From the NCBI GenBank assembly GCA_046563655.1, contig CM102286.1, forward strand, positions 11,222,001-11,286,000: a stretch of 64,000 bases of DNA. Direction: 5' to 3'. The notes beneath the pieces are model-generated. The model saw only the letters and a program-made list of their open reading frames with translations. It did no database searches and was not told the DNA's origin. Below are positions 21,172 through 50,905 of this stretch, piece after piece; the first letter of the stretch is position 1; each line of letters begins with the position of its first letter. The stretch is from Yuukianura sp. NJ FZ-2021. Its lineage: Eukaryota. Made by a program: the position numbers and the translations under genes.

Positions 21172-21899
21172 TGCATTAGATTCTTGTAGTACACAGCTTT
21201 TAGATAGAGCCCGTTGCAAAAGTATTTGTGAACCTTTGCTTCATGAAGTTTCAAATTGAAACTTTCAATTCAATTGGCTGATGGATTCAATCTGGTGAAA
21301 TTAAACATGGGCATCATTTTACGCTTGGTTGTATCAAAGCAAAGCAATTGAGCCAATTTTAGCACTAATTCTTAATTCTTAGTACAAAATTCATGAGTTG
21401 ATTTTAAGCTTTGCCTCGATCAAAAAGTGTTAATTAAAATGTAGGAACTATATGCTTAAACGCAATCTACAATAAACCTGCCTTCGGAATTGATGTTTTT
21501 CAAACTGGACAGTAAGTAAGTTTTAGTGGACTCCAGTAAGTTTTAAATGAAGTTTTGAAAATCCAGTCCTGGTGAAAGTTGGACCCAATATGAGAGGATG
21601 TTATTGTTAATTTTTTTTTAAATATTAGAGGTGATATTCGAGCATTTAGGGAGAAGTGGTCATCATTTGGTTAGATAGGTGTGAACTTTGTCCTCATCAG
21701 CGCCGCCACAGGGCCAACAGTGGAAGCAGCTACAGTTGAACTGTTGCCAAAACTAAACCCAACTGAAATCAAGGGAGGGCAGCATTTGCGAAAAACTTGC
21801 TCTCAAAATCCGAACGAAAGAGACGTTCTCAAAGCGTGTTCCTTCGGATTCTTTCGAAAATGAATGCTCAAAGACATTCAAGTGCATCTTATTCCTAGT

Positions 21900-22200
21900 G
21901 TATGGAGGGGCAATAACGACTTTCACTAATAATTATTTTTATCTTATAATTAAAAATTTTTTCCTTAAAACAAAAAAAAAGCTTACAAAAAGAAAAAAAA
22001 AGTTTTGAAAAAAATTTTTTTTTGTATTTAAATTTTTTTTTTCATATGAAGATCTTTTGTTTTATTTTATTTGTGAACCTTAATTTAAAATATTTAAAAT
22101 ATAAAATATTTAAAATATTTAAGAAATAGTTTTTGTACTTATATTTTTCTAAATTAGAAATATTTTTTATATGTAAAAAAAAGTTCTTTAAAAAAATACT
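21900..22200 (+). repeat. Left long terminal inverted repeat (AT-rich)
   Basis: Inverted match to 44520-44730, with roughly 90 bp of extra AT-rich sequence in the left copy. Confidence 0.85.
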
Positions 22201-22481
22201 TTCTAGTTTTTTCGTATGAAAAAAATACTTCATTTTTGGCGGAAGAAATATAAACGTAGAAATATATAACGAAGAAATATAAACACAGTGAAAAAACTTT
22301 TCAAAGGAAAAAAAGGGAAAAAAAATCTTTTGGATTGTGTCGTCATAAGCCAGGATTCCGTGGTCACTTGTGTTCTACCAATTGCATACCACGCGGGTCC
22401 ACTGTTGCCGGTTTTGGAATTCATAGAGGACCACGCCGTCGACAAGGCAGTTTTTTCTCGTGCCTGGGAGCAGGGGGTAAG

Positions 22482-25400
22482 ATTGTAGAAGGAATACAAT
22501 ACCTTGACCCGGATCTGAAAGAGCGTCCTCCATACCGCTGAGATCCAGCATATTCATGTTCGCATTATTAAGTTAAAACTACACAACTATGTCTAGATAT
22601 GACCACAATGGCCATGAAAAGTTACCTCTCAGTTGTAGATGGAATACATTACCTTGACCCGGATCTGAAAGAGCGTCCTCCATACCGCTGAGATCCAGCA
22701 TATTCATGTTCGCATTATTAAGTTAAAACTACACAACTATGTCTAGATATGACCACAATGGCCCTGAAAACTTACGTCTCAGTTGCAGCTGAAATACATT
22801 ACCTTGACCTGGATCTGGAAGAGCGTCCTCCATGCCGCTGAGATCCAGCATATTCATGTTGGCATTATTAAGTTAAAACTACACAACTATGTCTAGATAT
22901 GACCACAATGGCCCTGAAAAGTTACGTCTCAGATGTAGCTGAAATTCATTACCATGACCTGGATCTGGAAGTACGTCCTCCATGCCGCTGAGATCCAGCA
23001 TATTCATGTTCGCGTTATTAAGTTAAAACTACACAACTATGTCTACATATGACCACAATGGCCCTGAAAAGTTACGTCTCAGGTGTGGCTGAAATACATT
23101 ACCTTGACCTGGATCTGGAAGAGCGTCCTCCATGCCGCTTAGATCCAGCATATTCATGTTCGCATTATTAAGTTAAAACTACACAACTATTTATAGATAT
23201 GACCACAATGGCCCTGAAAAGTTACGTCTCAGTTGCAGCTGAAATACATTACCTTGACCTGGATCTGAAAGAGCGTCCTCCATGCCGCTTAGATCCAGCA
23301 TATTCATGTTCGCATTTTTAAGTTACACCTGCACAACTATTTATAGATATGACAACAGTGGCCCTGAAAAGTTACGTCTCAGTTGTGGCTGAATTACATT
23401 ACCTTGACCTGGATCTGGAAGAGCGTCCTCCATGCCGCTTAGATCCAGCATATTCGTGTTCGCATTATTAAGTTAAAACTACACAACTATGTCTAGATAT
23501 GACCACAATGGCCCTGAAAAGTTACGTCTCAGATGCAGCTGAAATTCATTACCTTGACCTGGATCTGGAAGTACGTCCTCCATGCCGCTGAGATCCAGCA
23601 TATTCATGTTCGCATTATTAAGTTAAAACTACACAACTATTTATAGATATGACCACAATGGCCCTGAAAAGTTACGTCTCAGTTGCAGGTGAAATACATT
23701 ACCTTGACCTGGATCTGGAAGAGCGTCCTCCATGCCGCTTAGATCCAGCATATTCAAGTTCGCATTATTAAGTTAAAACTACACAACTATGTCTACATAT
23801 GACCACAATGGCCCTGAAAAGTTACGTCTCAGTTGTGGCTGAAATACATTACCTTGACCTGGATCTGGAAGAGCGTCCTCCATGCCGCTGAGATCCAGCA
23901 TATTCATGTTGGCATTATTAAGTTAAAACTACACAACTATGTCTAGATATGACCACAATGGCCCTGAAAAGTTACGTCTCAGATGTAGCTGAAATTCATT
24001 ACCTTGACCTGGATCTGGAAGTACGTCCTCCATGCCGCTGAGATCCAGCATATTCATGTTCGCGTTATTAAGTTAAAACTACACAACTATGTCTACATAT
24101 GACCACAATGGCCCTGAAAAGTTACGTCTCAGGTGTGGCTGAAATACATTACCTTGACCTGGATCTGGAAGAGCGTCCTCCATGCCGCTTAGATCCAGCA
24201 TATTCATGTTCGCATTATTAAGTTAAAACTACACAACTATTTATAGATATGACCACAATGGCCCTGAAAAGTTACGTCTCAGTTGCAGCTGAAATACATT
24301 ACCTTGACCTGGATCTGAAAGAGCGTCCTCCATGCCGCTTAGATCCAGCATATTCATGTTCGCATTTTTAAGTTACACCTGCACAACTATTTATAGATAT
24401 GACAACAGTGGCCCTGAAAAGTTACGTCTCAGTTGTGGCTGAATTACATTACCTTGACCTGGATCTGGAAGAGCGTCCTCCATGCCGCTTAGATCCAGCA
24501 TATTCGTGTTCGCATTATTAAGTTAAAACTACACAACTATGTCTAGATATGACCACAATGGCCCTGAAAAGTTACGTCTCAGATGCAGCTGAAATTCATT
24601 ACCTTGACCTGGATCTGGAAGTACGTCCTCCATGCCGCTGAGATCCAGCATATTCATGTTCGCATTATTAAGTTAAAACTACACAACTATTTATAGATAT
24701 GACCACAATGGCCCTGAAAAGTTACGTCTCAGTTGCAGGTGAAATACATTACCTTGACCTGGATCTGGAAGAGCGTCCTCCATGCCGCTTAGATCCAGCA
24801 TATTCAAGTTCGCATTATTAAGTTAAAACTACACAACTATGTCTACATATGACCACAATGGCCCTGAAAAGTTACGTCTCAGTTGTGGCTGAAATACATT
24901 ACCTTGACCTGGATCTGGAAGAGCGTCCTCCATGCCGCTTAGTTCCAGCATATTCATGTTCGCATTATTAAGTTAAAACTACACAACTATGTCTAGATAT
25001 GACCACAATGGCCCTGAAAAGTTACGTCTCAGATGTAGCTGAAATTCATTACCTTGACCTGGATCTGGAAGTACGTCCTCCATGCCGCTGAGATCCAGCA
25101 TATTCATGTTCGCATTATTAAGTTAAAACTACACAACTATTTATAGATATGACCACAATGGCCCTGAAAAGTTACGTCTCAGTTGCAGGTGAAATACATT
25201 ACCTTGACCTGGATCTGGAAGAGCGTCCTCCATGCCGCTTAGATCCAGCATATTCAAGTTCGCATTATTAAGTTAAAACTACACAACTATGTCTACATAT
25301 GACCACAATGGCCCTGAAAAGTAACGTCTCAGTTGTGGCTGAAATACATTACCTTGACCTGGATCTGGAAGAGCGTCCTCCATGCCGCTTAGTTCCAGCA

Positions 25401-28400
25401 TATTCATGTTCGCATTATTAAGTTAAAACTACACAACTATGTCTAGATATGACCACAATGGCCCTGAAAAGTTACCTCTCAGATGTAGCTGAAATTCATT
25501 ACCTTGACCTGGATCTGGAAGTACGTCCTCCATGCCGCTGAGATCCAGCATATTCATGTTCGCATTATTAAGTTAAAACTACACAACTATGTCTACATAT
25601 GACCACAATGGCCCTGAAAAGTTACGTCTCAGTTGTGGCTGAAATACATTACCTTGACCTGGATCTGGAAGAGCGTCCTCCATGCCGCTTAGATCCAGCA
25701 TATTCATGTTCGCATTATTAAGTTAAAACTCCATTAACCATGCCCACAATGGCCCTGAAAAGTTACGTCTCAGTTGCAGCTGAAATACATTACCTTGACC
25801 TGGATCTGGAAGAGCGTCCTCCATGCCGCTTAGATCCAGCATATTCATGTTCGCATTTTTAAGTTACACCTGCACAACTATTTATAGATATGACCACAAT
25901 GGCCCTGAAAAGTTACGTCTCAGTTGTAGCTGAAATACATTACCTTGACCTGGATCTGGAAGAGCGTCCTCCATGCCGCTTAGATCCAGCATATTCATGT
26001 TCGCATTATTAAGTTAAAACTACACAACTATTTGTAGATATGACCACAATGGCCCTGAAAAGTTACGTCTCAGTTGTGGCTGAAATACATTACCTTGACC
26101 TGGATCTGGAAGAGCGTCCTCCATGCCGCTTAGATCCAGCATATTCATGTTCGCATTATTAAGTTAAAACTACACAACTATGTCTAGATATGACCACAAT
26201 GGCCCTGAAAAGTTACGTCTCAGATGCAGCTGAAATTCATTACCTTGACCTGGATCTGGAAGTACGTCCTCCATGCCGCTGAGATCCAGCATATTCATGT
26301 TCGCATTATTAAGTTAAAACTACACAACTATGTCTAGATATGACCACAATGGCCCTGAAAAGTTACGTCTCAGATGCAGCTGAAATTCATTACCTTGACC
26401 TGGATCTGGAAGTACGTCCTCCATGCCGCTGAGATCCAGCATATTCATGTTCGCATTATTAAGTTAAAACTACAGAACTATTTATAGATATGACCACAAT
26501 GGCCCTGAAAAGTTACGTCTCAGTTGCAGGTGAAATACATTACCTTGACCTGGATCTGGAAGAGCGTCCTCCATGCCGCTTAGATCCAGCATATTCATGT
26601 TCGCATTATTAAGTTAAAACTACACAACTATGTCTACATATGACCACAATGGCCCTGAAAAGTTACGTCTCAGTTGTGGCTGAAATACATTACCTTGACC
26701 TGGATCTGGAAGAGCGTCCTCCATGCCGCTTAGATCCAGCATATTCATGTTCGCATTATTAAGTTAAAACTCCATTAACCATGCCCACAATGGCCCTGAA
26801 AAGTTACGTCTCAGTTGCAGCTGAAATACATTACCTTGACCTGGATCTGGAAGAGCGTCCTCCATGCCGCTTAGATCCAGCATATTCATGTTCGCATTTT
26901 TAAGTTACACCTGCACAACTATTTATAGATATGACCACAATGGCCCTGAAAAGTTACGTCTCAGTTGTAGCTGAAATACATTACCTTGACCTGGATCTGG
27001 AAGAGCGTCCTCCATGCCGCTTAGATCCAGCATATTCATGTTCGCATTATTAAGTTAAAACTACACAACTATTTGTAGATATGACCACAATGGCCCTGAA
27101 AAGTTACGTCTCAGTTGTGGCTGAAATACATTACCTTGACCTGGATCTGGAAGAGCGTCCTCCATGCCGCTTAGATCCAGCATATTCATGTTCGCATTAT
27201 TAAGTTAAAACTACACAACTATGTCTAGATATGACCACAATGGCCCTGAAAAGTTACGTCTCAGATGCAGCTGAAATTCATTACCTTGACCTGGATCTGG
27301 AAGTACGTCCTCCATGCCGCTGAGATCCAGCATATTCATGTTCGCATTATTAAGTTAAAACTACACAACTATGTCTAGATATGACCACAATGGCCCTGAA
27401 AAGTTACGTCTCAGATGCAGCTGAAATTCATTACCTTGACCTGGATCTGGAAGTACGTCCTCCATGCCGCTGAGATCCAGCATATTCATGTTCGCATTAT
27501 TAAGTTAAAACTACAGAACTATTTATAGATATGACCACAATGGCCCTGAAAAGTTACGTCTCAGTTGCAGGTGAAATACATTACCTTGACCTGGATCTGG
27601 AAGAGCGTCCTCCATGCCGCTTAGATCCAGCATATTCATGTTCGCATTATTAAGTTAAAACTACACAACTATGTCTACATATGACCACAATGGCCCTGAA
27701 AAGTTACGTCTCAGTTGTGGCTGAAATACATTACCTTGACCTGGATCTGGAAGAGCGTCCTCCATGCCGCTTAGATCCAGCATATTCATGTTCGCATTTT
27801 TAAGTTACACCTGCACAACTATTTATAGATATGACCACAATGGCCCTGAAAAGTTACGTCTCAGTTGTAGCTGAAATACATTACCTTGACCTGGATCTGG
27901 AAGAGCGTCCTCCATGCCGCTTAGATCCAGCATATTCATGTTCGCATTATTAAGTTAAAACTCCATTAACCATGTCCACAATGGCCCTGAAAAGTTACGT
28001 CTCAGTTGCAGCTGAAATACATTACCTTGACCTGGATCTGGAAGAGCGTCCTCCATGCCGCTTAGATCCAGCATATTCATGTTCGCATTTTTAAGTTACA
28101 CCTGCACAACTATTTATAATATGACCACAATGGCCCTGAAAAGTTACGTCTCAGTTGCAGCTGAAATACATTACCTTGACCTGGATCTGGAAGAGCGTCC
28201 TCCATGCCGCTTAGATCCAGCATATTCATGTTCGCATTATTAAGTTAAAACTACACAACTATTTGTAGATATGACCACAATGGCCCTGAAAAGTTACGTC
28301 TCAGTTGTGGCTGAAATACATTACCTTGACCTGGATCTGGAAGAGCGTCCTCCATGCCGCTTAGATCCAGCATATTCATGTTCGCATTTTTAAGCTACAC

Positions 28401-31400
28401 GTGCACAACTATTTATAGATATGACAACAGTGGCCCTGAAAAGTTACGTCTCAGTTGTGGCTGAATTACATTACCTTGACCTGGATCTGGAAGAGCGTCC
28501 TCCATGCCGCTTAGATCCAGCATATTCGTGTTCGCATTATTAAGTTAAAACTACACAACTATTCTAGATATGACCACAATGGCCCTGAAATGTTACGTCT
28601 CAGATGCAGCTGAAATTCATTACCTTGACCTGGATCTGGAAGTACGTCCTCCATGCCGCTGAGATCCAGCATATTCATGTTCGCATTATTAAGTTAAAAC
28701 TACAGAACTATTTATAGATATGACCACAATGGCCCTGAAAAGTTACGTCTCAGTTGCAGGTGAAATACATTACCTTGACCTGGATCTGGAAGAGCGTCCT
28801 CCATGCCGCTTAGATCCAGCATATTCATGTTCGCATTATTAAGTTAAAACTACACAACTATGTCTACATATGACCACAATGGCCCTGAAAAGTTACGTCT
28901 CAGTTGTGGCTGAAATACATTACCTTGACCTGGATCTGGAAGAGCGTCCTCCATGCCGCTTAGATCCAGCATATTCATGTTCGCATTATTAAGTTAAAAC
29001 TACACAACTATGTCTACATATGACCACAATGGCCCTGAAAAGTTACGTCTCAGTTGTGGCTGAAATACATTACCTTGACCTGGATCTGGAAGAGCGTCCT
29101 CCATGCCGCTTAGATCCAGCATATTCATGTTCGCATTATTAAGTTAAAACTACACAACTATGTCTAGATATGACCACAATGGCCCTGAAAAGTTACGTCT
29201 CAGATGCAGCTGAAATTCATTACCTTGACCTGGATCTGGAAGTACGTCCTCCATGCCGCTGAGATCCAGCATATTCATGTTCGCATTATTAAGTTAAAAC
29301 TACAGAACTATTTATAGATATGACCACAATGGCCCTGAAAAGTTACCTCTCAGATGTAGCTGAAATTCATTACCTTGACCTGGATCTGGAAGTACGTCCT
29401 CCATGCCGCTGAGATCCAGCATATTCATGTTCGCATTATTAAGTTAAAACTACACAACTATGTCTACATATGACCACAATGGCCCTGAAAAGTTACGTCT
29501 CAGTTGTGGCTGAAATACATTACCTTGACCTGGATCTGGAAGAGCGTCCTCCATGCCGCTTAGATCCAGCATATTCATGTTCGCATTATTAAGTTAAAAC
29601 TCCATTAACATATGACCACAATGGCCCTGAAAAGTTACGTCTCAGTTGCAGCTGAAATACATTACCTTGACCTGGATCTGGAAGAGCGTCCTCCATGCCG
29701 CTTAGATCCAGCATATTCATGTTCGCATTTTTAAGTTACACCTGCACAACTATTTATAGATATGACCACAATAGCCCTGAAAAGTTACGTCTCAGTTGCA
29801 GCTGAAATACATTACCTTGACCTGGATCTGGAAGAGCGTCCTCCATGCCGCTTAGATCCAGCATATTCATGTTCGCATTATTAAGTTAAAACTACACAAC
29901 TATTTGTAGATATGACCACAATGGCCCTGAAAAGTTACGTCTCAGTTGTGGCTGAAATACATTACCTTGACCTGGATCTGGAAGAGCGTCCTCCATGCCG
30001 CTTAGATCCAGCATATTCATGTTCGCATTATTAAGTTAAAACTACACAACTATGTCTAGATATGACCACAATGGCCCTGAAAAGTTACGTCTCAGATGCA
30101 GCTGAAATTCATTACCTTGACCTGGATCTGGAAGTACGTCCTCCATGCCGCTGAGATCCAGCATATTCATGTTCGCATTATTAAGTTAAAACTACACAAC
30201 TATGTCTAGATATGACCACAATGGCCCTGAAAAGTTACGTCTCAGATGCAGCTGAAATTCATTACCTTGACCTGGATCTGGAAGTACGTCCTCCATGCCG
30301 CTGAGATCCAGCATATTCATGTTCGCATTATTAAGTTAAAACTACAGAACTATTTATAGATATGACCACAATGGCCCTGAAAAGTTACGTCTCAGTTGCA
30401 GGTGAAATACATTACCTTGACCTGGATCTGGAAGAGCGTCCTCCATGCCGCTTAGATCCAGCATATTCATGTTCGCATTATTAAGTTAAAACTACACAAC
30501 TATGTCTACATATGACCACAATGGCCCTGAAAAGTTACGTCTCAGTTGTGGCTGAAATACATTACCTTGACCTGGATCTGGAAGAGCGTCCTCCATGCCG
30601 CTTAGATCCAGCATATTCATGTTCGCATTATTAAGTTAAAACTCCATTAACCATGTCCACAATGGCCCTGAAAAGTTACGTCTCAGTTGCAGCTGAAATA
30701 CATTACCTTGACCTGGATCTGGAAGAGCGTCCTCCATGCCGCTTAGATCCAGCATATTCATGTTCGCATTTTTAAGTTACACCTGCACAACTATTTATAA
30801 TATGACCACAATGGCCCTGAAAAGTTACGTCTCAGTTGCAGCTGAAATACATTACCTTGACCTGGATCTGGAAGAGCGTCCTCCATGCCGCTTAGATCCA
30901 GCATATTCATGTTCGCATTATTAAGTTAAAACTACACAACTATTTGTAGATATGACCACAATGGCCCTGAAAAGTTACGTCTCAGTTGTGGCTGAAATAC
31001 ATTACCTTGACCTGGATCTGGAAGAGCGTCCTCCATGCCGCTTAGATCCAGCATATTCATGTTCGCATTTTTAAGCTACACGTGCACAACTATTTATAGA
31101 TATGACAACAGTGGCCCTGAAAAGTTACGTCTCAGTTGTGGCTGAATTACATTACCTTGACCTGGATCTGGAAGAGCGTCCTCCATGCCGCTTAGATCCA
31201 GCATATTCGTGTTCGCATTATTAAGTTAAAACTACACAACTATTCTAGATATGACCACAATGGCCCTGAAAAGTTACGTCTCAGATGCAGCTGAAATTCA
31301 TTACCTTGACCTGGATCTGGAAGTACGTCCTCCATGCCGCTGAGATCCAGCATATTCATGTTCGCATTATTAAGTTAAAACTACAGAACTATTTATAGAT

Positions 31401-34400
31401 ATGACCACAATGGCCCTGAAAAGTTACGTCTCAGTTGCAGGTGAAATACATTACCTTGACCTGGATCTGGAAGAGCGTCCTCCATGCCGCTTAGATCCAG
31501 CATATTCATGTTCGCATTATTAAGTTAAAACTACACAACTATGTCTACATATGACCACAATGGCCCTGAAAAGTTACGTCTCAGTTGTGGCTGAAATACA
31601 TTACCTTGACCTGGATCTGGAAGAGCGTCCTCCATGCCGCTTAGTTCCAGCATATTCATGTTCGCATTATTAAGTTAAAACTACACAACTATGTCTAGAT
31701 ATGACCACAATGGCCCTGAAAAGTTACGTCTCAGATGCAGCTGAAATTCATTACCTTGACCTGGATCTGGAAGTACGTCCTCCATGCCGCTGAGATCCAG
31801 CATATTCATGTTCGCATTATTAAGTTAAAACTACAGAACTATTTATAGATATGACCACAATGGCCCTGAAAAGTTACGTCTCAGTTGCAGGTGAAATACA
31901 TTACCTTGACCTGGATCTGGAAGAGCGTCCTCCATGCCGCTTAGATCCAGCATATTCATGTTCGCATTATTAAGTTAAAACTACACAACTATGTCTACAT
32001 ATGACCACAATGGCCCTGAAAAGTTACGTCTCAGTTGTAGCTGAAATACATTACCTTGACCTGGATCTGGAAGAGCGTCCTCCATGCCGCTTAGTTCCAG
32101 CATATTCATGTTCGCATTATTAAGTTAAAACTACACAACTATGTCTAGATATGACCACAACGGCCCTGAAAAGTTACGTCTCAGATGTAGCTGAAATTCA
32201 TTACCTTGACGTGGATCTGGAAGTACGTCCTCCATGCCGCTGAGATCCAGCATATTCATGTTCGCATTATTAAGTTAAAACTACACAACTATGTCTACAT
32301 ATGACCACAATGGCCCTGAAAAGTTACGTCTCAGTTGTGGCTGAAATACATTACCTTGACCTGGATCTGGAAGAGCGTCCTCCATGCCGCTTAGATCCAG
32401 CATATTCATGTTCGCATTATTAAGTTAAAACTCCATTAACTATGTCATGACCACAATGGCCCTGAAAAGTTACGTCTCAGTTGCAGCTGAAATACATTAC
32501 CTTGACCTGGATCTGGAAGAGCGTCCTCCATGCCGCTTAGATCCAGCATATTCATGTTCGCATTTTTAAGTTACACCTGCACAACTATTTATAATATGAC
32601 CACAATGGCCCTGAAAAGTTACGTCTCAGTTGCAGCTGAAATACATTACCTTGACCTGGATCTGGAAGAGCGTCCTCCATGCCGCTTAGATCCAGCATAT
32701 TCATGTTCGCATTATTAAGTTAAAACTACACAACTATTTGTAGATATGACCACAATGGCCCTGAAAAGTTACGTCTCAGTTGTGGCTGAAATACATTACC
32801 TTGACCTGGATCTGGAAGAGCGTCCTCCATGCCGCTTAGATCCAGCATATTCATGTTCGCATTTTTAAGCTACACGTGCACAACTATTTACAATATGACC
32901 ACAATGGCCTTGAAAAGTTACGTCTCAGTTGCAGCTGAAATACATTACCTTGACCTGGATCTGGAAGAGCGTCCTCCATGCCGCTTAGATCCAGCATATT
33001 CATGTTCGCATTTTGAAGTTACACCTGCACAACTATTTATAGATATGACAACAGTGGCCCTGAAAAGTTACGTCTCAGTTGTGGCTGAATTACATTACCT
33101 TGACCTGGATCTGGAAGAGCGTCCTCCATGCCGCTTAGATCCAGCATATTCGTGTTCGCATTATTAAGTTAAAACTACACAACTATGTCTAGATATGACC
33201 ACAATGGCCCTGAAAAGTTACGTCTCAGATGCAGCTGAAATTCATTACCTTGACCTGGATCTGGAAGTACGTCCTCCATGCCGCTGAGATCCAGCATATT
33301 CATGTTCGCATTATTAAGTTAAAACTACAGAACTATTTATAGATATGACCACAATGGCCCTGAAAAGTTACGTCTCAGTTGCAGGTGAAATACATTACCT
33401 TGACCTGGATCTGGAAGAGCGTCCTCCATGCCGCTTAGATCCAGCATATTCATGTTCGCATTATTAAGTTAAAACTACACAACTATGTCTAGATATGACC
33501 ACAATGGCCCTGAAAAGTTACGTCTCAGATGTAGCTGAAATTCATTACCTTGACCTGGATCTGGAAGTACGTCCTCCATGCCGCTGAGATCCAGCATATT
33601 CATGTTCGCATTATTAAGTTAAAGCTACACAACTATGTCTAGATATGACCACAATGGCCCTGAAAAGTTACGTCTCAGATGCAGCTGAAATTCATTACCT
33701 TGACCTGGATCTGGAAGTACGTCCTCCATGCTGCTGAGATCCAGCATATTCATGTTCGCATTATTAAGTTAAAACTACAGAACTATTTATAGATATGACC
33801 ACAATGGCCCTGAAAAGTTACGTCTCAGTTGCAGCTGAAATACATTACCTTGACCTGGATCTGGAAGAGCGTCCTCCATGCCGCTTAGATCCAGCATATT
33901 CATGTTCGCATTATTAAGTTAAAACTACACAACTATTTGTAGATATGACCACAATGGCCCTGAAAAGTTACGTCTCAGTTGTGGCTGAAATACATTACCT
34001 TGACCTGGATCTGGAAAAGCGTCCTCCATGCCGCTTAGATCCAGCATATTCATGTTCGCATTTTTAAGCTACACGTGCACAACTATTTACAATATGACCA
34101 CAATGGCCTTGAAAAGTTACGTCTCAGTTGTGGCTGAAATACATTACCTTGACCTGGATCTGGAAGAGCGTCCTCCATGCCGCTTAGATCCAGCATATTC
34201 ATGTTCGCATTTTTAAGCTACATGTGCACAACTATTTACAATATGACCACAATGGCCTTGAAAAGTTACGTCTCAGTTGCAGCTGAAATACATTACCTTG
34301 ACCTGGATCTGGAAGAGCGTCCTCCATGCCGCTTAGATCCAGCATATTCATGTTCGCATTTTGAAGTTACACCTGCACAACTATTTATAGATATGACCAC

Positions 34401-37400
34401 AATGGCCCTGAAAAGTTACGTCTCAGTTGTGGCTGAATTACATTACCTTGACCTGGATCTGGAAGAGCGTCCTCCATGCCGCTTAGATCCAGCATATTCG
34501 TGTTCGCATTATTAAGTTAAAACTACACAACTATGTCTAGATATGACCACAATGGCCCTGAAAAGTTACGTCTCAGATGCAGCTGAAATTCATTACCTTG
34601 ACCTGGATCTGGAAGTACGTCCTCCATGCCGCTGAGATCCAGCATATTCATGTTCGCATTATTAAGTTAAAACTACAGAACTATTTATAGATATGACCAC
34701 AATGGCCCTGAAAAGTTACGTCTCAGTTGCAGGTGAAATACATTACCTTGACCTGGATCTGGAAGAGCGTCCTCCATGCCGCTTAGATCCAGCATATTCA
34801 TGTTCGCATTATTAAGTTAAAACTACACAACTATGTCTACATATGACCACAATGGCCCTGAAAAGTTACGTCTCAGTTGTGGCTGAAATACATTACCTTG
34901 ACCTGGATCTGGAAGAGCGTCCTCCATGCTGCTTAGTTCCAGCATATTCATGTTTGCATTATTAAGTTAAAACTACACAACTATGTCTAGATATGACCAC
35001 AATGGCCCTGAAAAGTTACGTCTCAGATGTAGCTGAAATTCATTACCTTGACCTGGATCTGGAAGTACGTCCTCCATGCCGCTGAGATCCAGCATATTCA
35101 TGTTCGCATTATTAAGTTAAAGCTACACAACTATGTCTACATATGACCACAATGGCCCTGAAAAGTTACGTCTCAGTTGTGGCTGAAATTACATTACCTT
35201 GACCTGGATCTGGAAGAGCGTCCTCCATGCCGCTTAGATCCAGCATATTCGTGTTCGCATTATTAAGTTAAAACTACACAACTATGTCTAGATATGACCA
35301 CAATGGCCCTGAAAAGTTACGTCTCAGATGCAGCTGAAATTCATTACCTTGACCTGGATCTGGAAGTACGTCCTCCATGCTGCTGAGATCCAGCATATTC
35401 ATGTTCGCATTATTAAGTTAAAACTACAGAACTATTTATAGATATGACCACAATGGCCCTGAAAAGTTACGTCTCAGTTGCAGCTGAAATACATTACCTT
35501 GACCTGGATCTGGAAGAGCGTCCTCCATGCCGCTTAGATCCAGCATATTCATGTTCGCATTATTAAGTTAAAACTACACAACTATTTGTAGATATGACCA
35601 CAATGGCCCTGAAAAGTTACGTCTCAGTTGTGGCTGAAATACATTACCTTGACCTGGATCTGGAAAAGCGTCCTCCATGCCGCTTAGATCCAGCATATTC
35701 ATGTTCGCATTTTTAAGCTACACGTGCACAACTATTTACAATATGACCACAATGGCCTTGAAAAGTTACGTCTCAGTTGCAGCTGAAATACATTACCTTG
35801 ACCTGGATCTGGAAGAGCGTCCTCCATGCCGCTTAGATCCAGCATATTCATGTTCGCATTTTGAAGTTACACCTGCACAACTATTTATAGATATGACAAC
35901 AATGGCCCTGAAAAGTTACGTCTCAGTTGTGGCTGAAATTACATTACCTTGACCTGGATCTGGAAGAGCGTCCTCCATGCCGCTTAGATCCAGCATATTC
36001 GTGTTCGCATTATTAAGTTAAAACTACACAACTATGTCTAGATATGACCACAATGGCCCTGAAAAGTTACGTCTCAGATGCAGCTGAAATTCATTACCTT
36101 GACCTGGATCTGGAAGTACGTCCTCCATGCCGCTGAGATCCAGCATATTCATGTTCGCATTATTAAGTTAAAACTACAGAACTATTTATAGATATGACCA
36201 CAATGGCCCTGAAAAGTTACGTCTCAGTTGCAGCTGAAATACATTACCTTGACCTGGATCTGGAAGAGCGTCCTCCATGCCGCTTAGATCCAGCATATTC
36301 ATGTTCGCATTATTAAGTTAAAACTACACAACTATGTCTACATATGACCACAATGGCCCTGAAAAGTTACGTCTCAGTTGTGGCTGAAATACATCACCTT
36401 GACCGGGATCTGGAAGAGCGTCCTCCATGCTGCTGAGATCCAGCATATTCATGTTTGCATTATTAAGTTAAAACTACACAACTATGTCTAGATATGACCA
36501 CAATGGCCCTGAAAAGTTACGTCTCAGTTGTAGCTGAAATTCATTACCTTGACCTGGATCTGGAAGTACGTCCTCCATGCCGCTGAGATCCAGCATATTC
36601 ATGTTCGCATTATTAAGTTAAAGCTACACAACTATGTCTACATATGACCACAATGGCCCTGAAAAGTTACGTCTCAGTTGTGGCTGAATTACATTACCTT
36701 GACCTGGATCTGGAAGAGCGTCCTCCATGCCGCTTAGATCCAGCATATTCGTGTTCGCATTATTAAGTTAAAACTACACAACTATGTCTAGATATGACCA
36801 CAATGGCCCTGAAAAGTTACGTCTCAGATGCAGCTGAAATTCATTACCTTGACCTGGATCTGGAAGTACGTCCTCCATGCTGCTGAGATCCAGCATATTC
36901 ATGTTCGCATTATTAAGTTAAAACTACAGAACTATTTATAGATATGACCACAATGGCCCTGAAAAGTTACGTCTCAGTTGCAGCTGAAATACATTACCTT
37001 GACCTGGATCTGGAAGAGCGTCCTCCATGCCGCTTAGATCCAGCATATTCATGTTCGCATTATTAAGTTAAAACTACACAACTATTTGTAGATATGACCA
37101 CAATGGCCCTGAAAAGTTACGTCTCAGTTGTGGCTGAAATACATTACCTTGACCTGGATCTGGAAAAGCGTCCTCCATGCCGCTTAGATCCAGCATATTC
37201 ATGTTCGCATTTTTAAGCTACACGTGCACAACTATTTACAATATGACCACAATGGCCTTGAAAAGTTACGTCTCAGTTGCAGCTGAAATACATTACCTTG
37301 ACCTGGATCTGGAAGAGCGTCCTCCATGCCGCTTTGATCCAGCATATTCATGTTCGCATTATTAAGTTAAAACTACAGAACTATTTATAGATATGACCAC

Positions 37401-40400
37401 AATGGCCCTGAAAAGTTACGTCTCAGTTGCAGGTGAAATACATTACCTTGACCTGGATCTGGAAGAGCGTCCTCCATGCCGCTTAGATCCAGCATATTCA
37501 TGTTCGCATTATTAAGTTAAAACTACACAACTATGTCTACATATGACCACAATGGCCCTGAAAAGTTACGTCTCAGTTGTGGCTGAAATACATTACCTTG
37601 ACCTGGATCTGGAAGAGCGTCCTCCATGCCGCTTAGATCCAGCATATTCATGTTCGCATTATTAAGTTAAAACTACACAACTATGTCTACATATGACCAC
37701 AATGGCCCTGAAAAGTTACGTCTCAGTTGTGGCTGAAATACATTACCTTGACCTGGATCTGGAAGAGCGTCCTCCATGCCGCTTAGATCCAGCATATTCA
37801 TGTTCGCATTATTAAGTTAAAACTACACAACTATTTATAGATATGACCACAATGGCCCTGAAAAGTTACGTCTCAGTTGTAGCTGAAATACATTACCTTG
37901 ACCTGGATCTGGAAGTACGTCCTCCATGCCTCTGAGATCCAGCATATTCATGTTCGCATTATTAAGTCAAAACTACACAACTATTTTTACATATGACCAC
38001 AATGGCCCTGAAAAGTTACGTCTCAGTTGTGGCTGAAATACATCACCTTGACCGGGATCTGGAAGTACGTCCTCCATGCCGCTTAGATCCAGCATATTCA
38101 TGTTCGCATTATTAAGTTAAAACTACACAACTATTTGTAGATATGACCACAATGGCCCTGAAAAGTTACGTCTCAGTTGTGGCTGAAATACATTACCTTG
38201 ACCTGGATCTGGAAAAGCGTCCTCCATGCCGCTTAGATCCAGCATATTCATGTTCGCATTTTTAAGCTACACGTGCACAACTATTTACAATATGACCACA
38301 ATGGCCTTGAAAAGTTACGTCTCAGTTGCAGCTGAAATACATTACCTTGACCTGGATCTGGAAGAGCGTCCTCCATGCCGCTTTGATCCAGCATATTCGT
38401 GTTCGCATTATTAAGTTAAAACTACAGAACTATTTATAGATATGACCACAATGGCCCTGAAAAGTTACGTCTCAGTTGCAGCTGAAATACATTACCTTGA
38501 CCTGGATCTGGAAGAGCGTCCTCCATGCCGCTTAGATCCAGCATATTCATGTTCGCATTATTAAGTTAAAACTACACAACTATTTGTAGATATGACCACA
38601 ATGGCCCTGAAAAGTTACGTCTCAGTTGTGGCTGAAATACATTACCTTGACCTGGATCTGGAAAAGCGTCCTCCATGCCGCTTAGATCCAGCATATTCAT
38701 GTTCGCATTTTTAAGCTACACGTGCACAACTATTTACAATATGACCACAATGGCCTTGAAAAGTTACGTCTCAGTTGCAGCTGAAATACATTACCTTGAC
38801 CTGGATCTGGAAGAGCGTCCTCCATGCCGCTTTGATCCAGCATATTCGTGTTCGCATTATTAAGTTAAAACTACAGAACTATTTATAGATATGACCACAA
38901 TGGCCCTGAAAAGTTACGTCTCAGTTGCAGGTGAAATTCATTACCTTGACCTGGATCTGGAAGTACGTCCTCCATGCCGCTGAGATCCAGCATATTCATG
39001 TTCGCATTATTAAGTTAAAACTACACAACTATGTCTACATATGACCACAATGGCCCTGAAAAGTTACGTCTCAGTTGTGGCTGAAATACATTACCTTGAC
39101 CTGGATCTGGAAGAGCGTCCTCCATGCCGCTTAGATCCAGCATATTCATGTTCGCATTATTAAGTTAAAACTACACAACTATGTCTACATATGACCACAA
39201 TGGCCCTGAAAAGTTACGTCTCAGTTGTGGCTGAAATACATTACCTTGACCTGGATCTGGAAGAGCGTCCTCCATGCCGCTTAGTTCCAGCATATTCATG
39301 TTCGCATTATTAAGTTAAAACTACACAACTATGTCTAGATATGACCACAATGGCCCTGAAAAGTTACGTCTCAGATGTAGCTGAAATTCATTACCTTGAC
39401 CTGGATCTGGAAGTACGTCCTCCATGCCGCTGAGATCCAGCATATTCATGTTCGCATTATTAAGTTAAAACTACACAACTATGTCTACATATGACCACAA
39501 TGGCCCTGAAAAGTTACGTCTCAGTTGTGGCTGAAATTCATTACCTTGACCTGGATCTGGAAGTACGTCCTCCATGCCGCTTAGATCCAGCATATTCATG
39601 TTCGCATTATTAAGTTAAAACTACACAACTATTTGTAGATATGACCACAATGGCCCTGAAAAGTTACGTCTCAGTTGTGGCTGAAATACATTACCTTGAC
39701 CTGGATCTGGAAAAGCGTCCTCCATGCCGCTTAGATCCAGCATATTCATGTTCGCATTTTTAAGCTACACGTGCACAACTATTTACAATATGACCACAAT
39801 GGCCTTGAAAAGTTACGTCTCAGTTGCAGCTGAAATACATTACCTTGACCTGGATCTGGAAGAGCGTCCTCCATGCCGCTTTGATCCAGCATATTCGTGT
39901 TCGCATTATTAAGTTAAAACTACAGAACTATTTATAGATATGACCACAATGGCCCTGAAAAGTTACGTCTCAGTTGCAGGTGAAATACATTACCTTGACC
40001 TGGATCTGGAAGAGCGTCCTCCATGCCGCTTAGATCCAGCATATTCATGTTCGCATTATTAAGTTAAAACTACACAACTATGTCTACATATGACCACAAT
40101 GGCCCTGAAAAGTTACGTCTCAGTTGTGGCTGAAATACATTACCTTGACCTGGATCTGGAAGAGCGTCCTCCATGCCGCTTAGATCCAGCATATTCATGT
40201 TCGCATTATTAAGTTAAAACTACACAACTATGTCTACATATGACCACAATGGCCCTGAAAAGTTACGTCTCAGTTGTGGCTGAAATACATTACCTTGACC
40301 TGGATCTGGAAGAGCGTCCTCCATGCCGCTTAGTTCCAGCATATTCATGTTCGCATTATTAAGTTAAAACTACACAACTATGTCTAGATATGACCACAAT

Positions 40401-42391
40401 GGCCCTGAAAAGTTACGTCTCAGTTGTGGCTGAAATTCATTACCTTGACCTGGATCTGGAAGTACGTCCTCCATGCCGCTGAGATCCAGCATATTCATGT
40501 TCGCATTATTAAGTTAAAACTACACAACTATGTCTACATATGACCACAATGGCCCTGAAAAGTTACGTCTCAGATGTAGCTGAAATTCATTACCTTGACC
40601 TGGATCTGGAAGTACGTCCTCCATGCCGCTGAGATCCAGCATATTCATGTTCGCATTATTAAGTTAAAACTACACAACTATGTCTACATATGACCACAAT
40701 GGCCCTGAAAAGTTACGTCTCAGTTGTGGCTGAAATACATTACCTTGACCTGGATCTGGAAGAGCGTCCTCCATGCCGCTTAGATCCAGCATATTCATGT
40801 TCGCATTATTAAGTTAAAACTACACAACTATGTCTAGATATGACCACAATGGCCCTGAAAAGTTACGTCTCAGTTGTAGCTGAAATACATTACCTTGACC
40901 TGGATCTGGAAGTACGTCCTCCATGCCGCTGAGATCCAGCATATTCATGTTCGCATTATTAAGTCAAAACTACACAACTATTTTTACATATGACCACAAT
41001 GGCCCTGAAAAGTTACGTCTCAGTTGTGGCTGAAATACATCACCTTGACCTGGATCTGGAAGAGCGTCCTCCATGCCGCTTAGATCCAGCATATTCATGT
41101 TCGCATTATTAAGTTAAAACTCCATTAACCATGTCCACAATGGCCCTGAAAAGTTACGTCTCAGTTGCAGCTGAAATACATTACCTTGACCTGGATCTGG
41201 AAGAGCGTCCTCCATGCCGCTTAGATCCAGCATATTCATGTTCGCATTTTTAAGTTACACCTGCACAACTATTTATAATATGACCACAATGGCCCTGAAA
41301 AGTTACGTCTCAGTTGCAGCTGAAATACATTACCTTGACCTGGATCTGGAAGAGCGTCCTCCATGCCGCTTAGATCCAGCATATTCATGTTCGCATTATT
41401 AAGTTAAAACTACACAACTATTTGTAGATATGACCACAATGGCCCTGAAAAGTTACGTCTCAGTTGTGGCTGAAATACATTACCTTGACCTGGATCTGGA
41501 AAAGCGTCCTCCATGCCGCTTAGATCCAGCATATTCATGTTCGCATTTTTAAGCTACACGTGCACAACTATTTACAATATGACCACAATGGCCTTGAAAA
41601 GTTACGTCTCAGTTGCAGCTGAAATACATTACCTTGACCTGGATCTGGAAGAGCGTCCTCCATGCCGCTTAGATCCAGCATATTCATGTTCGCATTATTA
41701 AGTTAAAACTACACAACTATTTATAGATATGACCACAATGGCCCTGAAAAGTTACGTCTCAGTTGCAGGTGAAATACATTACCTTGACCTGGATCTGGAA
41801 GAGCGTCCTCCATGCCGCTTAGATCCAGCATATTCATGTTCGCATTATTAAGTTAAAACTACACAACTATGTCTTCATATGACCACAATGGCCCTGAAAA
41901 GTTACGTCTCAGTTGTGGCTGAAATACATTACCTTGACCTGGATCTGGAAGAGCGTCCTCCATGCCGCTTAGATCCAGCATATTCATGTTCGCATTATTA
42001 AGTTAAAACTACACAACTATGTCTACATATGACCACAATGGCCCTGAAAAGTTACGTCTCAGTTGTGGCTGAAATACATTACCTTGACCTGGATCTGGAA
42101 GAGCGTCCTCCATGCCGCTTAGTTCCAGCATATTCATGTTCGCATTATTAAGTTAAAACTACACAACTATGTCTAGATATGACCACAATGGCCCTGAAAA
42201 GTTACGTCTCAGATGCAGCTGAAATTCATTACCTTGACCTGGATCTGGAAGTACGTCCTCCATGCCGCTGAGATCCAGCATATTCATGTTCGCATTATTA
42301 AGTTAAAACTACACAACTGTGTCTACATATGACCACAATGGCCCTGAAAAGTTACGTCTCAGTTGTAACTGAAATACATTGCCTTGACCTG
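22482..42391. repeat. Tandem satellite DNA array, 150-bp monomer, about 133 copies, highly homogeneous, with 7-mer higher-order repeats
   Basis: Head-to-tail monomer accttgacctggatctggaagagcgtcctccatgccgcttagatccagcatattcatgttcgcattattaagttaaaactacacaactatttatagatatgaccacaatggccctgaaaagttacgtctcagttgcagctgaaatacatt. There are also 141-, 149- and 151-bp variants. The copy number is estimated from length. Confidence 0.99.
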
Positions 42392-42460
42392 AGTTCGAGT
42401 TTAGTCACGAAAACGACAAGACTTACTTTGTTTCACTCTCACACGTTTCACTCTCAGTTA

Positions 42461-43198
42461 TTATAATAGCGAAGCTATTATTATAAAAGTAGTTTGTCTG
42501 TCCGTCCGTCTGTCTGTCCGTCTATCCCGGAAAACATTAGAACGATTTTCTCCGGAACTATTGTACCAATTTCAACCGGGTTTCCACCAGTGACCATGTC
42601 ATGACCCGGACCTAATCACTATTGAATATGACCCCCGTGTGTCAACTCCTTCCGGGTCAAAGGTCAAGGTCAACCGGTTTTCTCCCGGTAACATGAAAAA
42701 TGACCTCTACAAAAGTTGTTCATCTCGTCGAGACCAACAACTTTTGTGTATATCACATGACCCCAAGTGACCTGCTTCCAGGTCAAAGGTCAACTTTTTT
42801 CATATTAACGTCCTGGTAGCTGGTAAGCGGAGAGGAACCCACCCCACAGCCCCGGGTGACCCACACTCACACCACCGGGGGAGCCCACGCCCCTCCCCCG
42901 GGGAACACACCCCAACGCCTCCCGGGGTGCGGAGCTAAATAGTAGGTGGAACCCATCCCCACGCCTACTGGGGTGCGGAGCAAATAAGCGGGGGGAACAC
43001 ACACCAACGCCCCCTGGGGTGCGGAGCAGAAAAGTCGGGGGAAGCCACCCACCACTCCACCGGGAGGGGGCGGGAATGAGGGGGGAACACACCCCCACTC
43101 CCCCTGGGGGGGCGGGAAAGTGGGGGGACACCCCCACCCCCCGGGGGCAACCCCTAATTTCTGAGCTATTATCATTATGGGCGGTTTACAACCGGTTT
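42461..43198 (+). mobile_element. Helentron-associated non-autonomous element (HINE/DINE-1-like)
   Basis: 5' subterminal repeat plus adjacent inverted repeat (tataatagc-gaa-gctatta). (GTCY)n microsatellite at 42496-42523. ggtcaaaggtcaa motifs. GC-rich internal tandem repeats (~42880-43150). 3' sub-TIR gctattat (43165-43172) followed by the hairpin cggtt-tac-aaccg (43182-43194) and a T-run. Confidence 0.7.
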
Positions 43199-43258
43199 AT
43201 TAGAATCCTATTCCAAGCTACAATCAAGCTCAAGTCAATAAGATTTGCTCCAGTTGCA

Positions 43259-44239
43259 ATGGCAATAGCTAACTTTTTCCTCAAAAGTTTAATTTCTATT
43301 TTCCATTCTCGCCAATTTACTGACGAACAACTGAAGAACATCTCTAAGGTCAAAGTGCAGTTTGATCATCAATTCAACAGCCAAGAACAGCTTTTACGTA
43401 GCCCTCCAACATCCTTTGGAAACCAACTTAACATCCTCATTCATGGACTAGAGCTCAGTGTAACTTCTACAAAATCAGTTTCACAGTGGATTCATCAGAA
43501 ACTGGGTATACGAATTCGAGTTAAAGCTGTGAAAGTGTTTGGGAAAATATGCACCACTTTTGTTACGCTGAAAACTTTAAAAGAAAAAGCTATACTTTTT
43601 GGTCGTGGCCACTGGCTCAAAGGCTCAAATATCGGCATTTCTGATAATCTGACTCCAGAACAACGGATTAACGGTAAGCCAACTACTTCGGTATCTAGCT
43701 TCAAGGTTGGTATCATAATCTCAGCTCCCTGCAATATGCCATGTGCTGAATTCGTAAGGAGCGATGACATCATAAGTACCCATACAAAAAATAGTGAAGC
43801 TCCTGAATGCAGATCATTGTCGCCCCACCCCCAAAAGCCGGATTTGGAGGAGGGGCAGGTTCTACTTACTGCTGCAATAACATGGGAGAGTCATCAGACA
43901 TAGCGAAAAAGGAAAAAGAAAGTCAGAAATTCTAGCCAAGCGTCTAGTCAGCAAACTTCTGAATCTGTTTCCCACGACAGAAGTCTCACCCAATCTGCAT
44001 ATACAGACACAACGAAGCCCGACGGAACCAAATCAATCAAGAAACATAACACGGCTATGGATTTGCTTTCATTGAAGGCCGCCGTAGCAGCAAATGGAAA
44101 GATGGGCTTTGTTAAACAAGCAACACGTCTCTACGGTGACGTCACTGATAATACTCTGGATGAAATCAACCGGAGCCTTAACAAAGTAAAAATGAAAGAA
44201 GCTGTTGCACTCCTAAGAGATCGCAGAAAACGATGTTAG
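43259..44239 (+). pseudogene. Decayed TE-derived ORF: LINE ORF1p-like RRM/CTD segment followed by a possible BEN-like C-terminal region
   Basis: NILIHGLE..VSQWIHQKLG..VKVFGK..FVTLKTLKEKAILF..LKGSNIGISDNLTPEQR fits the ORF1p (Transposase_22-like) pattern. ORF 44057-44239 is in the same frame after a single TAG (43901-43903). Confidence 0.5.
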
Positions 44240-44519
44240 ATAATATCTTACTTAACATTATAAATCGACCTTTGCTTCATAGTTTTGTCACAAAGTTCCA
44301 GTCTGTTATAAGTGTCACCAAGGTTAGCTGAATAACTAATTTGAAACACTGATGTTATTTGCACTACTATTTATTTTCCGCCCAAATCTTATGAGTATCA
44401 TGTAAATTAGTAATGGGTACATATAACTAGTTTATTGGCTTCTACTACTGAATTAACTGATTGGCTTCAGTAATTACCTTTCCCACACTAGCTAAAGTCT
44501 ATTTTAATATGTTTAATCA

Positions 44520-44730
44520 AAAAAAAATTTTTAATGATCTTTTTTTAGATATAAAAAAATATTTCTAATTTAGAAAAATACTTTTAAGTACAAAAATTAT
44601 TTTTTAAATACAAATACAATTTTTTTTCAATACTTTTTTTTTTCTTTTTGTAAACTCTTTTTTTATTTTAATGAAAAAATTTTTAATTATAAGATAAAAA
44701 TAATTATTAGTCGTTATTGCCCCTCCATAC
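44520..44730 (-). repeat. Right long terminal inverted repeat
   Basis: Reverse complement of 21900-22200. Confidence 0.85.
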
Positions 44731-45236
44731 TAGTATAAGGAAGTTTGTAGTTTTGTAAACATAGATTCGGGTTTCACCAATCCGCACGGTTCATATTTGT
44801 TCTCTAGTTCCTTTTTTTTAAGCTGGAGTTGTAAATTATTGTAAATGGTGCGATTGAACACATTTTTTATTCGTATTAATAAAACTTTCCAGTATAGTGA
44901 TAAAACGCTCTGGTACCAAAACGAACTTGACCTTGTGGTGCAAGTAAAAAAAAATCTTGAATAGAGTTTTAATCTATTAAGCGTGACTTATAATTATGAG
45001 TTTACGAGCAATTACTTTTGAGCTCCTAAATTAAATGCTGACTGACGCTTTGTAAATTAATGCATATAAATAGCTAATTCGATAATTGAAGGTTATTGTT
45101 TAAAAAACCGACATCACTGACAATAAAAACCAAATACTTGAGTCATTAGACGACTCAAACAAATGGTAACTCAATCCCAAGTCATAGTCTATCTTCCATA
45201 ATTTCTTCATTTCATAAGTGTATCAGCTAAGGAAAA

Positions 45237-45768
45237 ATGGTGTTCAAGGGATTGTGTGCCTTAGTACTTCTGTGCACAATAAGTTGTGCGTTGCGTCCTC
45301 CTCCTGAAAAAGGTGATCTTTAACTAAAATGTTATGAACACTGTAATAATCTGTATTTACTGAAAAAGAATTTTTAGCCTTTCCAAACTTTTATTGTAAC
45401 GTTTAATTTTGCAACCATTAATAAATTTTAAACGAAGTTGATTCACCGAAGAAATTTATTGATTTTTACCATATGACGATGTGTTGCAACGGTTTTATCT
45501 ACCTACAGATCCATGCGATACTATGGAATGTGGATTCGGTTACAGATGTGAAAAATCTGAGAAGTGTTCAAGTCACAGAGGATGTCGACAGGTAGGAAAA
45601 TGCGTCAGTACGGCTAATAAAGATAACCACGGTAAATCATCGTGTCCGTCGAACAAAGGGCGTGGTTCGACCTGTGATTGGACAGACTGCAGAGAAAGTG
45701 GATGCAGAGATGGCTTGTTATGCTGCCCCAAACCGTGCGGGGGTACATGGTGTGTCAATCCAGTTTAA
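45237..45768 (+). CDS. Small secreted cysteine-rich protein with a C-terminal WAP (four-disulfide core) domain, waprin/crustin-like, 111 aa
   Basis: Exon 1 45237-45312 (signal peptide MVFKGLCALVLLCTISCA), exon 2 45509-45768. WAP motif CPSNKGRGSTCDWTDCRESGCRDGLLCCPKPCGGTWCVNP, preceded by the 6-Cys module DPCDTMECGFGYRC..C..C..CV. TATA-like tataaa at ~45066 and AATAAA at 45859. Confidence 0.85.
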
Positions 45769-47283: not shown

Positions 47284-47290
47284 TATAAAA
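47284..47290 (+). promoter_or_regulatory. Putative TATA box of the Piwi gene
   Basis: TATAAAA about 80 bp upstream of the ATG at 47364. Confidence 0.4.
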
Positions 47291-47363
47291 TCACTTTCCT
47301 TCATTTCCAATACAGACGCGGAGAACAGCACACGTTTAGCCTAAAGCAAATCTACAGTAAGTA

Positions 47364-50300: not shown

Positions 50301-50905
50301 TAACAGTGTAACATCAAACAATAAATAAAAAACGATTGTTAACTTAATTACTAATTAATTACAATTTTAATTGATGATTTTGCGGTAGGAGAGCCTTGAT
50401 GAACTTTACGGGCAACAACTTCCAAAACTGACGTTCATCATTGTTACTAAAAAAGGAAATGCGCGTATCATGGTCCGAAACGCATCAGGAATTGAGAATC
50501 CTAAAACTGGGACAATTGTTGACGGTGTCATCACGATTCCTGAAAGGTTCTTATAACTTCAAACAAGTTTTAATTAGGCATTGGTGAAATCGGAGTAATT
50601 GAAATGGAAATTTTAAACAATTGCATAGGTTTGACTTCTTCTTGGTTTCCCAAAATGGAAGACAAGGTCAGACAGTGAGCCCAACTACATACAATGTCAT
50701 CAGTACTGGCAGGACACCAGCTCAAAATATTCAGTTGCTGACCTACAGGTTCTGTCACTTGTACTACAATTGGAGTGGAACTGTTTCCATACCATTCGTG
50801 AGTCAATATGCACATAAACTGGCATACTTGACCGGAACTGCTTACACAGGTCAGTCCCACGTCAACGTTAATGAAAACTTGGCGCATTCCCTCTACTTTC
50901 TCTAA
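47364..50905 (+). CDS. piwi: PIWI-clade Argonaute (Piwi/Aubergine-like), ~886 aa, predicted slicer-inactive
   Basis: 12 exons: 47364-47466, 47540-47988, 48055-48795, 48880-49066, 49146-49290, 49365-49531, 49621-49659, 49744-50013, 50098-50189, 50252-50284, 50389-50546, 50629-50905 (2661 nt, in frame). N-terminal RG motifs (GRGASRGRG), GEIGTPVQNLIANFY, LNIWPGFTTAIR, PAZ (IVMTQYNQRTYMVHDIDW..TFMAYYQEKFG..LIPELCHMTGL), MID (YGKIK..SQC..TKITVQVNAKLGGEPW), PIWI (..DFFLVSQ..QTVSPTTY..CHLYYNWSGTVSIP..YAHKLAYL..LYFL*). AATAAA at 50955. Confidence 0.95.

Follow-up and report, generated by a model that had tools for sequence, protein, structure and literature searches.

Transposons of the IS3EU/GingerRoot superfamily are defined by TA..TA termini and a 6-bp target-site duplication (TSD) (PMC10045372, PMC6839031), and in rust fungi the IS3EU termini read TAYGG..CCRTA (PMC12730594). 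Captured fragments are frequent in GingerRoot elements, and Ginger elements have TG..CA termini (PMC6839031). Tandem growth inside non-autonomous DNA transposons is a described route to satellite DNA (PMC12628747, PMC4079207): arrays expanding inside MITEs (miniature inverted-repeat transposable elements) or foldback elements have been reported for miDNA4 and Xstir (PMC12628747) and for Tetris, for which unequal crossing over was proposed and long arrays were thought to disrupt transposition (PMC4079207). The present analysis concerned a window of 64,000 nucleotides (G000:C4:11222001-11286000), and genome searches were run on the 98.7-Mb, 22-contig animal assembly that contains it. The window held a 22,829-bp element (21901-44729) filled largely by a 20-kb tandem array, which was probably a nested, single-locus, satellite-like array that had grown inside an IS3EU MITE and stayed in place.

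The ends of the element belonged to a family. With up to three mismatches, the terminal 20-mer matched 73 sites in the genome, compared with 7 for a control, and these matches resolved into 21 facing pairs and 31 unpaired ends; the left inner arm as a query returned 29 matches, chiefly facing pairs. The window pair measured 22,829 bp and the 20 other pairs 507 to 3062 bp. Termini and TSDs were examined in the 13 of the 20 other pairs for which both ends were fetched, the remaining 7 lying outside this set. Twelve of the 13 paralogues had a perfect 6-bp TSD and one had a 5-bp duplication. The TATGG..CCATA core was present in the window copy and in 12 of the 13, the last having CCGTA at one end. 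The typical member was a foldback MITE of about 1.2 kb, nearly all inverted repeat. An earlier interpretation of this DNA, made without database searches (hereafter the sequence-only reading), had proposed a non-autonomous DNA-transposon insertion with terminal inverted repeats (TIRs) and a large array inside, and this was upheld by a family with paired, TSD-bearing copies. Ends found elsewhere mostly unpaired and without TSDs would have spoken for a chance arrangement; 21 pairs among 73 matches, and TSDs in all 13 paralogues examined, were found. The search for the TIR across the assembly thus agreed with that proposal as to facing pairs, but the TSDs were of 6 bp and not of 4 bp, and the other pairs did not exceed 3.1 kb.

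The register of the window copy was set by the 12 paralogues with perfect TSDs and gave termini TATGG..CCATA at 21901 and 44729. The left TSD was CTAGTG (21895-21900, plus strand) and the right CTAGTA (44730-44735, plus strand), with one mismatch between them; a match of five in six had a chance probability of about 0.006 given the local base composition. The left arm (21901-22478, plus strand) began with TATGG, followed the MITE family for 578 bp and was about 90% identical to the arms of 11 MITE copies (range 0.84-0.92, gaps ignored). Its inner end was cut off at 22478, where the MITE copies carry on with a different sequence. The right arm (44516-44729, minus strand), recognized by its similarity to the left arm and to the MITE copies, retained the outer 214 bp only, was also about 90% identical to the family, and lacked a 6-bp motif at terminal positions 21-26 that was kept in 25 of 26 family ends. 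The two arms were 93.5% identical over 217 aligned columns (gaps ignored), at least as much as either was to other MITE copies. Two unrelated MITE ends standing around an older array, or an array length created by the assembly, was a highly improbable explanation: the unequal arms and the 31 unpaired matches among 73 favored it, but the matching TSD and the likeness of the arms to each other opposed it.

The sequence-only reading had correctly noted inverted AT-rich ends on both sides of the array, and self-comparison recovered them as two stretches (21900-22032 against 44730-44603, 89%, E 4e-43; 22087-22194 against 44636-44528, 81%), but its termini and TSD had to be revised. Its 4-bp TSD, TAGT, was the inner four bases of the 6-bp duplication, and its first G and last C were target bases.

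Several other registers and preferences were tried and rejected. With TAGT as TSD and G..C as ends, the bases beside the core termini were complementary in only 5 of the 13 paralogues, TAGT being part of the 6-bp TSD. None of the 13 began with TGT, and the TSD was of 6 bp in 12 of them, which disposed of the Ginger-like alternative of TGT termini with a CTAG TSD. Ginger1 and Ginger2 were likewise rejected, with TG..CA termini in none of the 13 paralogues, and the 4-bp TSD of Ginger1 was contradicted by the 6 bp in 12 of 13. A preference for palindromic targets was not borne out, one of the 13 TSDs being a palindrome by eye.

Because of its TA..TA ends and the 6-bp TSD in 12 of 13 paralogues, the element was assigned to IS3EU/GingerRoot as a predicted non-autonomous derivative, and the superfamily that had been left unassigned could be named. 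It also had the TIRs of that superfamily. It was filed as a non-autonomous derivative only, since no integrase-like DDE transposase lay inside it; in the genome, Pfam rva_4 had 5 matches, and the 3 loci that held them were all outside the element.

Two longer members of the family, of 2.1 kb (L038:5030-7091) and 3.1 kb (L040:2559-5620), owed their size to nested inserts, one of which had its own inverted ends. Both were single copies with perfect TSDs. That these members likewise hold inserted sequence supports the formation of the array within a resident MITE. The same members bear on a different order of events, in which the MITE took up one or a few monomers, with or without a piece of a retroposon, at a donor site, moved as a cargo element of 2-3 kb and had its array expanded later, with an identical outcome. 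Perfect TSDs around the inserts, the presence of both outer termini in the window and the frequency of captured fragments in GingerRoot elements (PMC6839031) are in favor of this order, but neither a donor nor a sister copy was found in the assembly and the 2.1- and 3.1-kb members are themselves single copies, and it was considered unlikely.

Two further loci were observed among the repeats. A truncated right arm of the same MITE family, of about 137 bp, (L077:8829-9656; G000:C8, right end at 1624856) adjoined tandem arrays of 59 bp x9 and 45 bp x3, with no left MITE end within 10 kb. A second foldback MITE family was represented by a 1.8-kb copy (L033:1468-3274; G000:C7:1116468-1118274) with TATGGAGGGAT ends, TIRs of about 600 bp, a 6-bp TSD and HINE-like pieces inside.

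The tandem array (22483-42391, plus strand) made up 87% of the 22.8-kb element and was delimited by repeat finding. Tandem Repeats Finder gave a period of 150 bp and 133.1 copies at 22493-42391, as had been stated earlier for the unit and its number, and a degenerate partial unit extended leftward to about 22483. All units were head-to-tail, with no inverted monomer within the array. About 4 bp of filler belonging to neither MITE nor monomer (22479-22482, inspected by eye) separated the array from the left arm. The units differed by 5.7% on average and 61 of 132 were distinct. Identity between units peaked at lags of 7, 10 and 19 units, and exact repeats, computed directly, were up to 1217 bp long and stood about 7, 10, 18-19 and 26 units apart. 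Several variants were restricted to one part of the array. These local blocks of 7, 10 and 19 units suggest that the array grew where it stands. Block duplications and localized variants argue against an assembly artefact, as do the structure of the variants and the low number of singletons (18 in 19,800 bases).

A monomer 20-mer with up to two mismatches gave 133 matches in the genome, all forward among the 100 of 133 listed, and 133 matches in the window; there was therefore no 20-mer match elsewhere. When the divergent first unit supplied the pattern, the genome returned two matches, each of them inside the array. A profile of all units was also run against 102 sequences without the array (609,750 bases), among them MITE, HINE and gene-bearing IS3EU copies, and gave no hit at E ≤ 10. 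The monomer was aligned to 19 targets (MITE, HINE copies, retroposon, both gene-bearing elements, three other satellites and window flanks), and 18 of the 19 scores fell within the range of shuffled sequences, the exception being a 26-bp AT-rich match. Metagenome contigs had no match to the monomer 20-mer. As it had no similarity to MITE copies and no match outside the array, the 150-bp unit was, by sequence, predicted to be foreign to the MITE, and the view that it was the element's own internal unit was not supported. No other TIR pair carried the monomer, and the variable monomer counts expected among copies were absent.

Derivation of the monomer from the MITE, HINE, retroposon, gene-bearing IS3EU elements or satellites of 160, 163 and 165 bp was rejected, none giving a signal over shuffles or by profile.

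On the minus strand, a 39-nt GT..AG stretch was seen by eye in every unit and across the junction between arm and array (22463-22501). On the plus strand, the same junction resembled a splice donor by eye; both likenesses are probably due to chance.

The monomer might instead descend from an exon-intron piece of a gene-bearing parent, since lost, of the MITE family, the window copy being a deletion derivative of that parent, but this was judged very improbable. The recurrent 39-nt stretch agreed with it, and a gene-bearing parent with MITE termini was not found for comparison; yet tblastx of left arm, monomer dimer and MITE found no match at E ≤ 0.05 in the two gene-bearing elements or in four other targets, MITE copies continue differently at 22478, and ordinary units were not crossed by any stop-free frame of at least 80 amino acids, the three such frames listed for the array sitting at variant units.

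From 42391 the interior was a separate element, with full copies at G000:C13:179147-180738 (L035/L036) and G000:C7:1120092-1121640 (L033), to which it was 84-85% identical. These copies had a common 5' end, one open 332-aa open reading frame (ORF), the polyadenylation signal AATAAA and a simple-repeat tail rich in AC, and by eye they were flanked by a 15-bp TSD. The window interior (42391-44501, minus the HINE) was accordingly read from its sequence as a putative 3'-truncated, single-ORF retroposon without long terminal repeats (non-LTR). Its 5' end (42391-42457, plus strand) coincided with that of the C7 and C13 copies. The body (43202-44501, plus strand) had an interrupted ORF, lacked the 3' end and tail and stopped at 44501, followed by about 14 bp of deletion-junction filler (44502-44515, inspected by eye) and then the right arm. 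The retroposon ORF had no Pfam family over the cut-off and no match at E ≤ 0.001 among 2567 candidate proteins (182-581 aa). The element is a candidate ORF1-only or HAL1-like retroposon, whose ORF would resemble ORF1 of long interspersed nuclear elements. An element of about 2.2 kb without array and HINE, as calculated earlier, was arithmetically correct, but about 1.37 kb of it was this separate retroposon, which left about 0.8 kb of transposon. The C13 retroposon sat in a 160-bp satellite and the window retroposon adjoined the 150-bp array. Twenty-two loci had a 27-bp 3' hairpin motif in common, and at 12 of the 22 the 1.5 kb upstream held several different ORFs, none recognized as reverse transcriptase.

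The HINE-like insert reported earlier was found at 42458-43201 (744 bp, plus strand) in the retroposon 5' leader. It was absent from the C7 and C13 copies and appeared as a 752-base skip in all four runs. It had the anatomy of non-autonomous Helentrons described as HINE or DINE-1 (PMC4067079), with subterminal inverted repeats, a GTCT/GTCC microsatellite, central repeats, a 3' hairpin and T-rich boundaries; the boundaries were confirmed in 5 other copies, and the family was large (527 candidates, 40 of them scored). A Helentron as the seed of the array did not fit, the central HINE repeats measuring 42-46 bp and the HINE sitting inside the retroposon and outside the array.

Gene-bearing IS3EU elements were present in the assembly. 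Two 8.5-kb elements, about 95% alike (G000:C4:7901407-7909887, L047; G000:C14:125373-133939, L050), had TIRs of about 550 bp starting TATGGGGGGAG and perfect 6-bp TSDs. They encoded a multi-exon integrase-core (rva_4) transposase with open exons, a RING protein and a convergent, weakly HECT-like protein. The TAGCGCTA palindrome was repeated both within their introns and at the centre of the MITE. Their TIRs diverged from the MITE TIRs past the first bases, and for this difference they were regarded as candidate partners only. By sequence they indicate that the IS3EU superfamily is present in this genome, though as another family than the MITE. In 20 regions beside unpaired MITE ends, read 10 kb inward, tblastx gave no match to a gene-bearing element. 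Four kb from a gene-bearing element, satellite arrays of 163 bp and of 165/145 bp were observed (L046:1-7266; G000:C4:7.89 Mb), with a switch in orientation.

Four contig sets, from two samples in two studies, were compared with the right side of the element (window 42090-47500); none of the runs listed as containing the sequence was from RNA. Because it differed from the assembly at fixed flank positions, sample S1 was probably another individual. One S1 contig (set X3) spanned the joint between array and retroposon and another the joint between retroposon and arm, so that the internal joints, too, spoke against chance or artefact; no read spanned the array in the contig sets compared, which spoke for it. 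The contig across array and retroposon halted at the HINE start, for which reason the HINE may be absent from S1. In flank contigs of S1, 21 aligned letters entered the right terminus, below the 31-letter bar. The search for an empty site in other samples, proposed earlier as a check, gave no empty allele among the rows listed. In organism B, a 180-letter monomer contig had 7 differences, and the unit is probably in tandem there too, because a collapsed loop of 150-bp repeats would be expected to have this length. Contig depth for monomer and flank was 827-1161 against 24 in X3, and 25 against 0-9 in most flank bins in X4; contig depth does not equal copy number, and no array length was therefore drawn from it.

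That the whole 22.8-kb unit had moved, or could move, as one potentially mobile satellite cassette was the proposal of the sequence-only reading, and it was found to be very unlikely. Both termini with a near-perfect TSD, gene-bearing IS3EU elements with open transposase exons in the genome and a possibly intact right end in S1 were compatible with it. Against it, only one copy existed, the 20 other pairs were no longer than 3.1 kb, the monomer was not found elsewhere in the assembly, the TSD had one mismatch, the right arm of the assembled haplotype was down to 214 bp without the family motif, and no gene-bearing partner with the same termini was seen in the 20 regions read. It is equally improbable that the gene-rich region received the seed of the satellite, or all 20 kb of array, within a non-autonomous IS3EU element that resident IS3EU transposases can still move in trans; were the cassette mobile, it could set a heterochromatin-forming array beside genes, in this case a PIWI gene at a distance of 2.6 kb. 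Neither a new superfamily nor a mobile satellite is demonstrated by this locus.

Under the preferred reading of an array grown inside a stationary MITE, a foldback MITE of about 1.2 kb would have inserted by cut-and-paste with duplication of 6 bp of target, as its family, termini and TSD indicate, using transposase supplied in trans by a putative partner. Its palindromic centre has been lost, with foreign DNA holding the 150-bp unit in its place, and the filler at the junction suggests break and repair at the hairpin-prone centre. The single-ORF retroposon would have inserted at the right end of the array. A deletion, evident from comparison with intact copies and presumably later, took the 3' end of the retroposon and the inner right arm; the HINE, nested in the retroposon leader, would have entered afterwards. 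The unit would have multiplied in place by unequal exchange or by replication-based duplication of multi-unit blocks, either of which could produce the block pattern observed.

Several observations weigh against this sequence of events. Four further, more diverged end pairs beside unpaired ends had a matching 6-mer in one case only. With 31 of 73 terminal matches unpaired and 10 kb read inward in 20 regions, longer cargo copies may escape. The monomer donor was not found with the 20-mer and first-unit patterns genome-wide or with the profile in 102 sequences, and a diverged donor outside the fetched loci is possible. Of the first 11 terminal bases, the 8.5-kb elements had about 8 in common with the MITE family, and no more. 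The flank contigs of S1 ceased to align precisely where the right end has its 6-bp deletion; since these alignments halt there with 6-9 spare letters, the right end may be intact in S1. With no empty allele seen, the size of the insertion and the order of events were not directly observed.

The surroundings of the element were gene-rich, with immunoglobulin-domain exons on either side and, some 2.6 kb to the right, a PIWI-family gene that carried PAZ and Piwi domains (about 47365-50905). A small cysteine-rich, secreted-type gene without Pfam match (45236-45770) started about 500 bp right of the element. The locus could be used for measuring the growth of a young array, through block duplications and length differences between individuals, and any effect of the array on the neighboring PIWI gene.

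Compared with described systems, the window element resembled IS3EU/GingerRoot in its TA..TA termini, long TIRs and 6-bp TSD without fixed sequence, and its TATGG..CCATA fitted the TAYGG..CCRTA of rust-fungal IS3EU (PMC12730594). It differed from GingerRoot elements in having no transposase, in its length (22.8 kb against 3.9-12.9 kb in the clubmoss study) and in consisting of tandem array for 87%. Tandem repeats are tied to IS3EU-like sequence also in HSymIS3EUlR of Hydractinia, with a 182-bp internal unit (PMC11934779), and in CgiSat35 and CgiSat47 of the Pacific oyster (PMC8268682). In the available portions of these papers, the Hydractinia and oyster repeats are multi-locus or megabase-scale and are linked to IS3EU by library similarity, the Hydractinia repeat lying at putative centromeres, whereas the window has a single gene-flanked array of 20 kb, and the two ends and the TSD can be seen.

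In a Helentron-borne satellite of the DINE-TR1 or oyster type the array stands between the conserved ends of the Helentron, and here the HINE was outside the array. DINE-TR1 is reportedly a Helentron that supplies a satellite unit; unlike it, the window HINE was not the source of the 150-bp unit.

Tetris of Drosophila virilis, with its TIR-220 repeat, is like the window element a non-autonomous foldback element with an internal kb-scale array (PMC4079207). In many copies TIR-220 belongs to the Tetris TIR, with which it has 37 bp in common, and Tetris has a Mutator-like TSD of 8-10 bp (PMC4079207). The window array did not follow this pattern of a unit taken from the TIR and recurring in many copies: its unit was unrelated to the TIR, lay between the arms and was confined to one locus, with a TSD of 6 bp. 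In miDNA4, a Tc1/mariner MITE of Xenopus, a foreign tandem unit expands inside the MITE shell as in the window; the miDNA4 unit occurs as monomer or array across copies, whereas the window unit was in one of 21 paired copies, and the superfamilies differ (PMC12628747). The available portions of the IS3EU, GingerRoot and foldback-satellite literature gave no description of a single-locus 20-kb array in a bounded IS3EU MITE, and their supplements and Repbase may hold such cases. For IS3EU, a superfamily that has received little study, the locus provides a fully resolved case: its two ends, its TSD, all the nested insertions and the family without expansion are readable, and the array is still confined to one locus. 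By these comparisons, the window array appears to work like an incubator of the miDNA4 or Tetris type whose shell is a non-autonomous IS3EU derivative.

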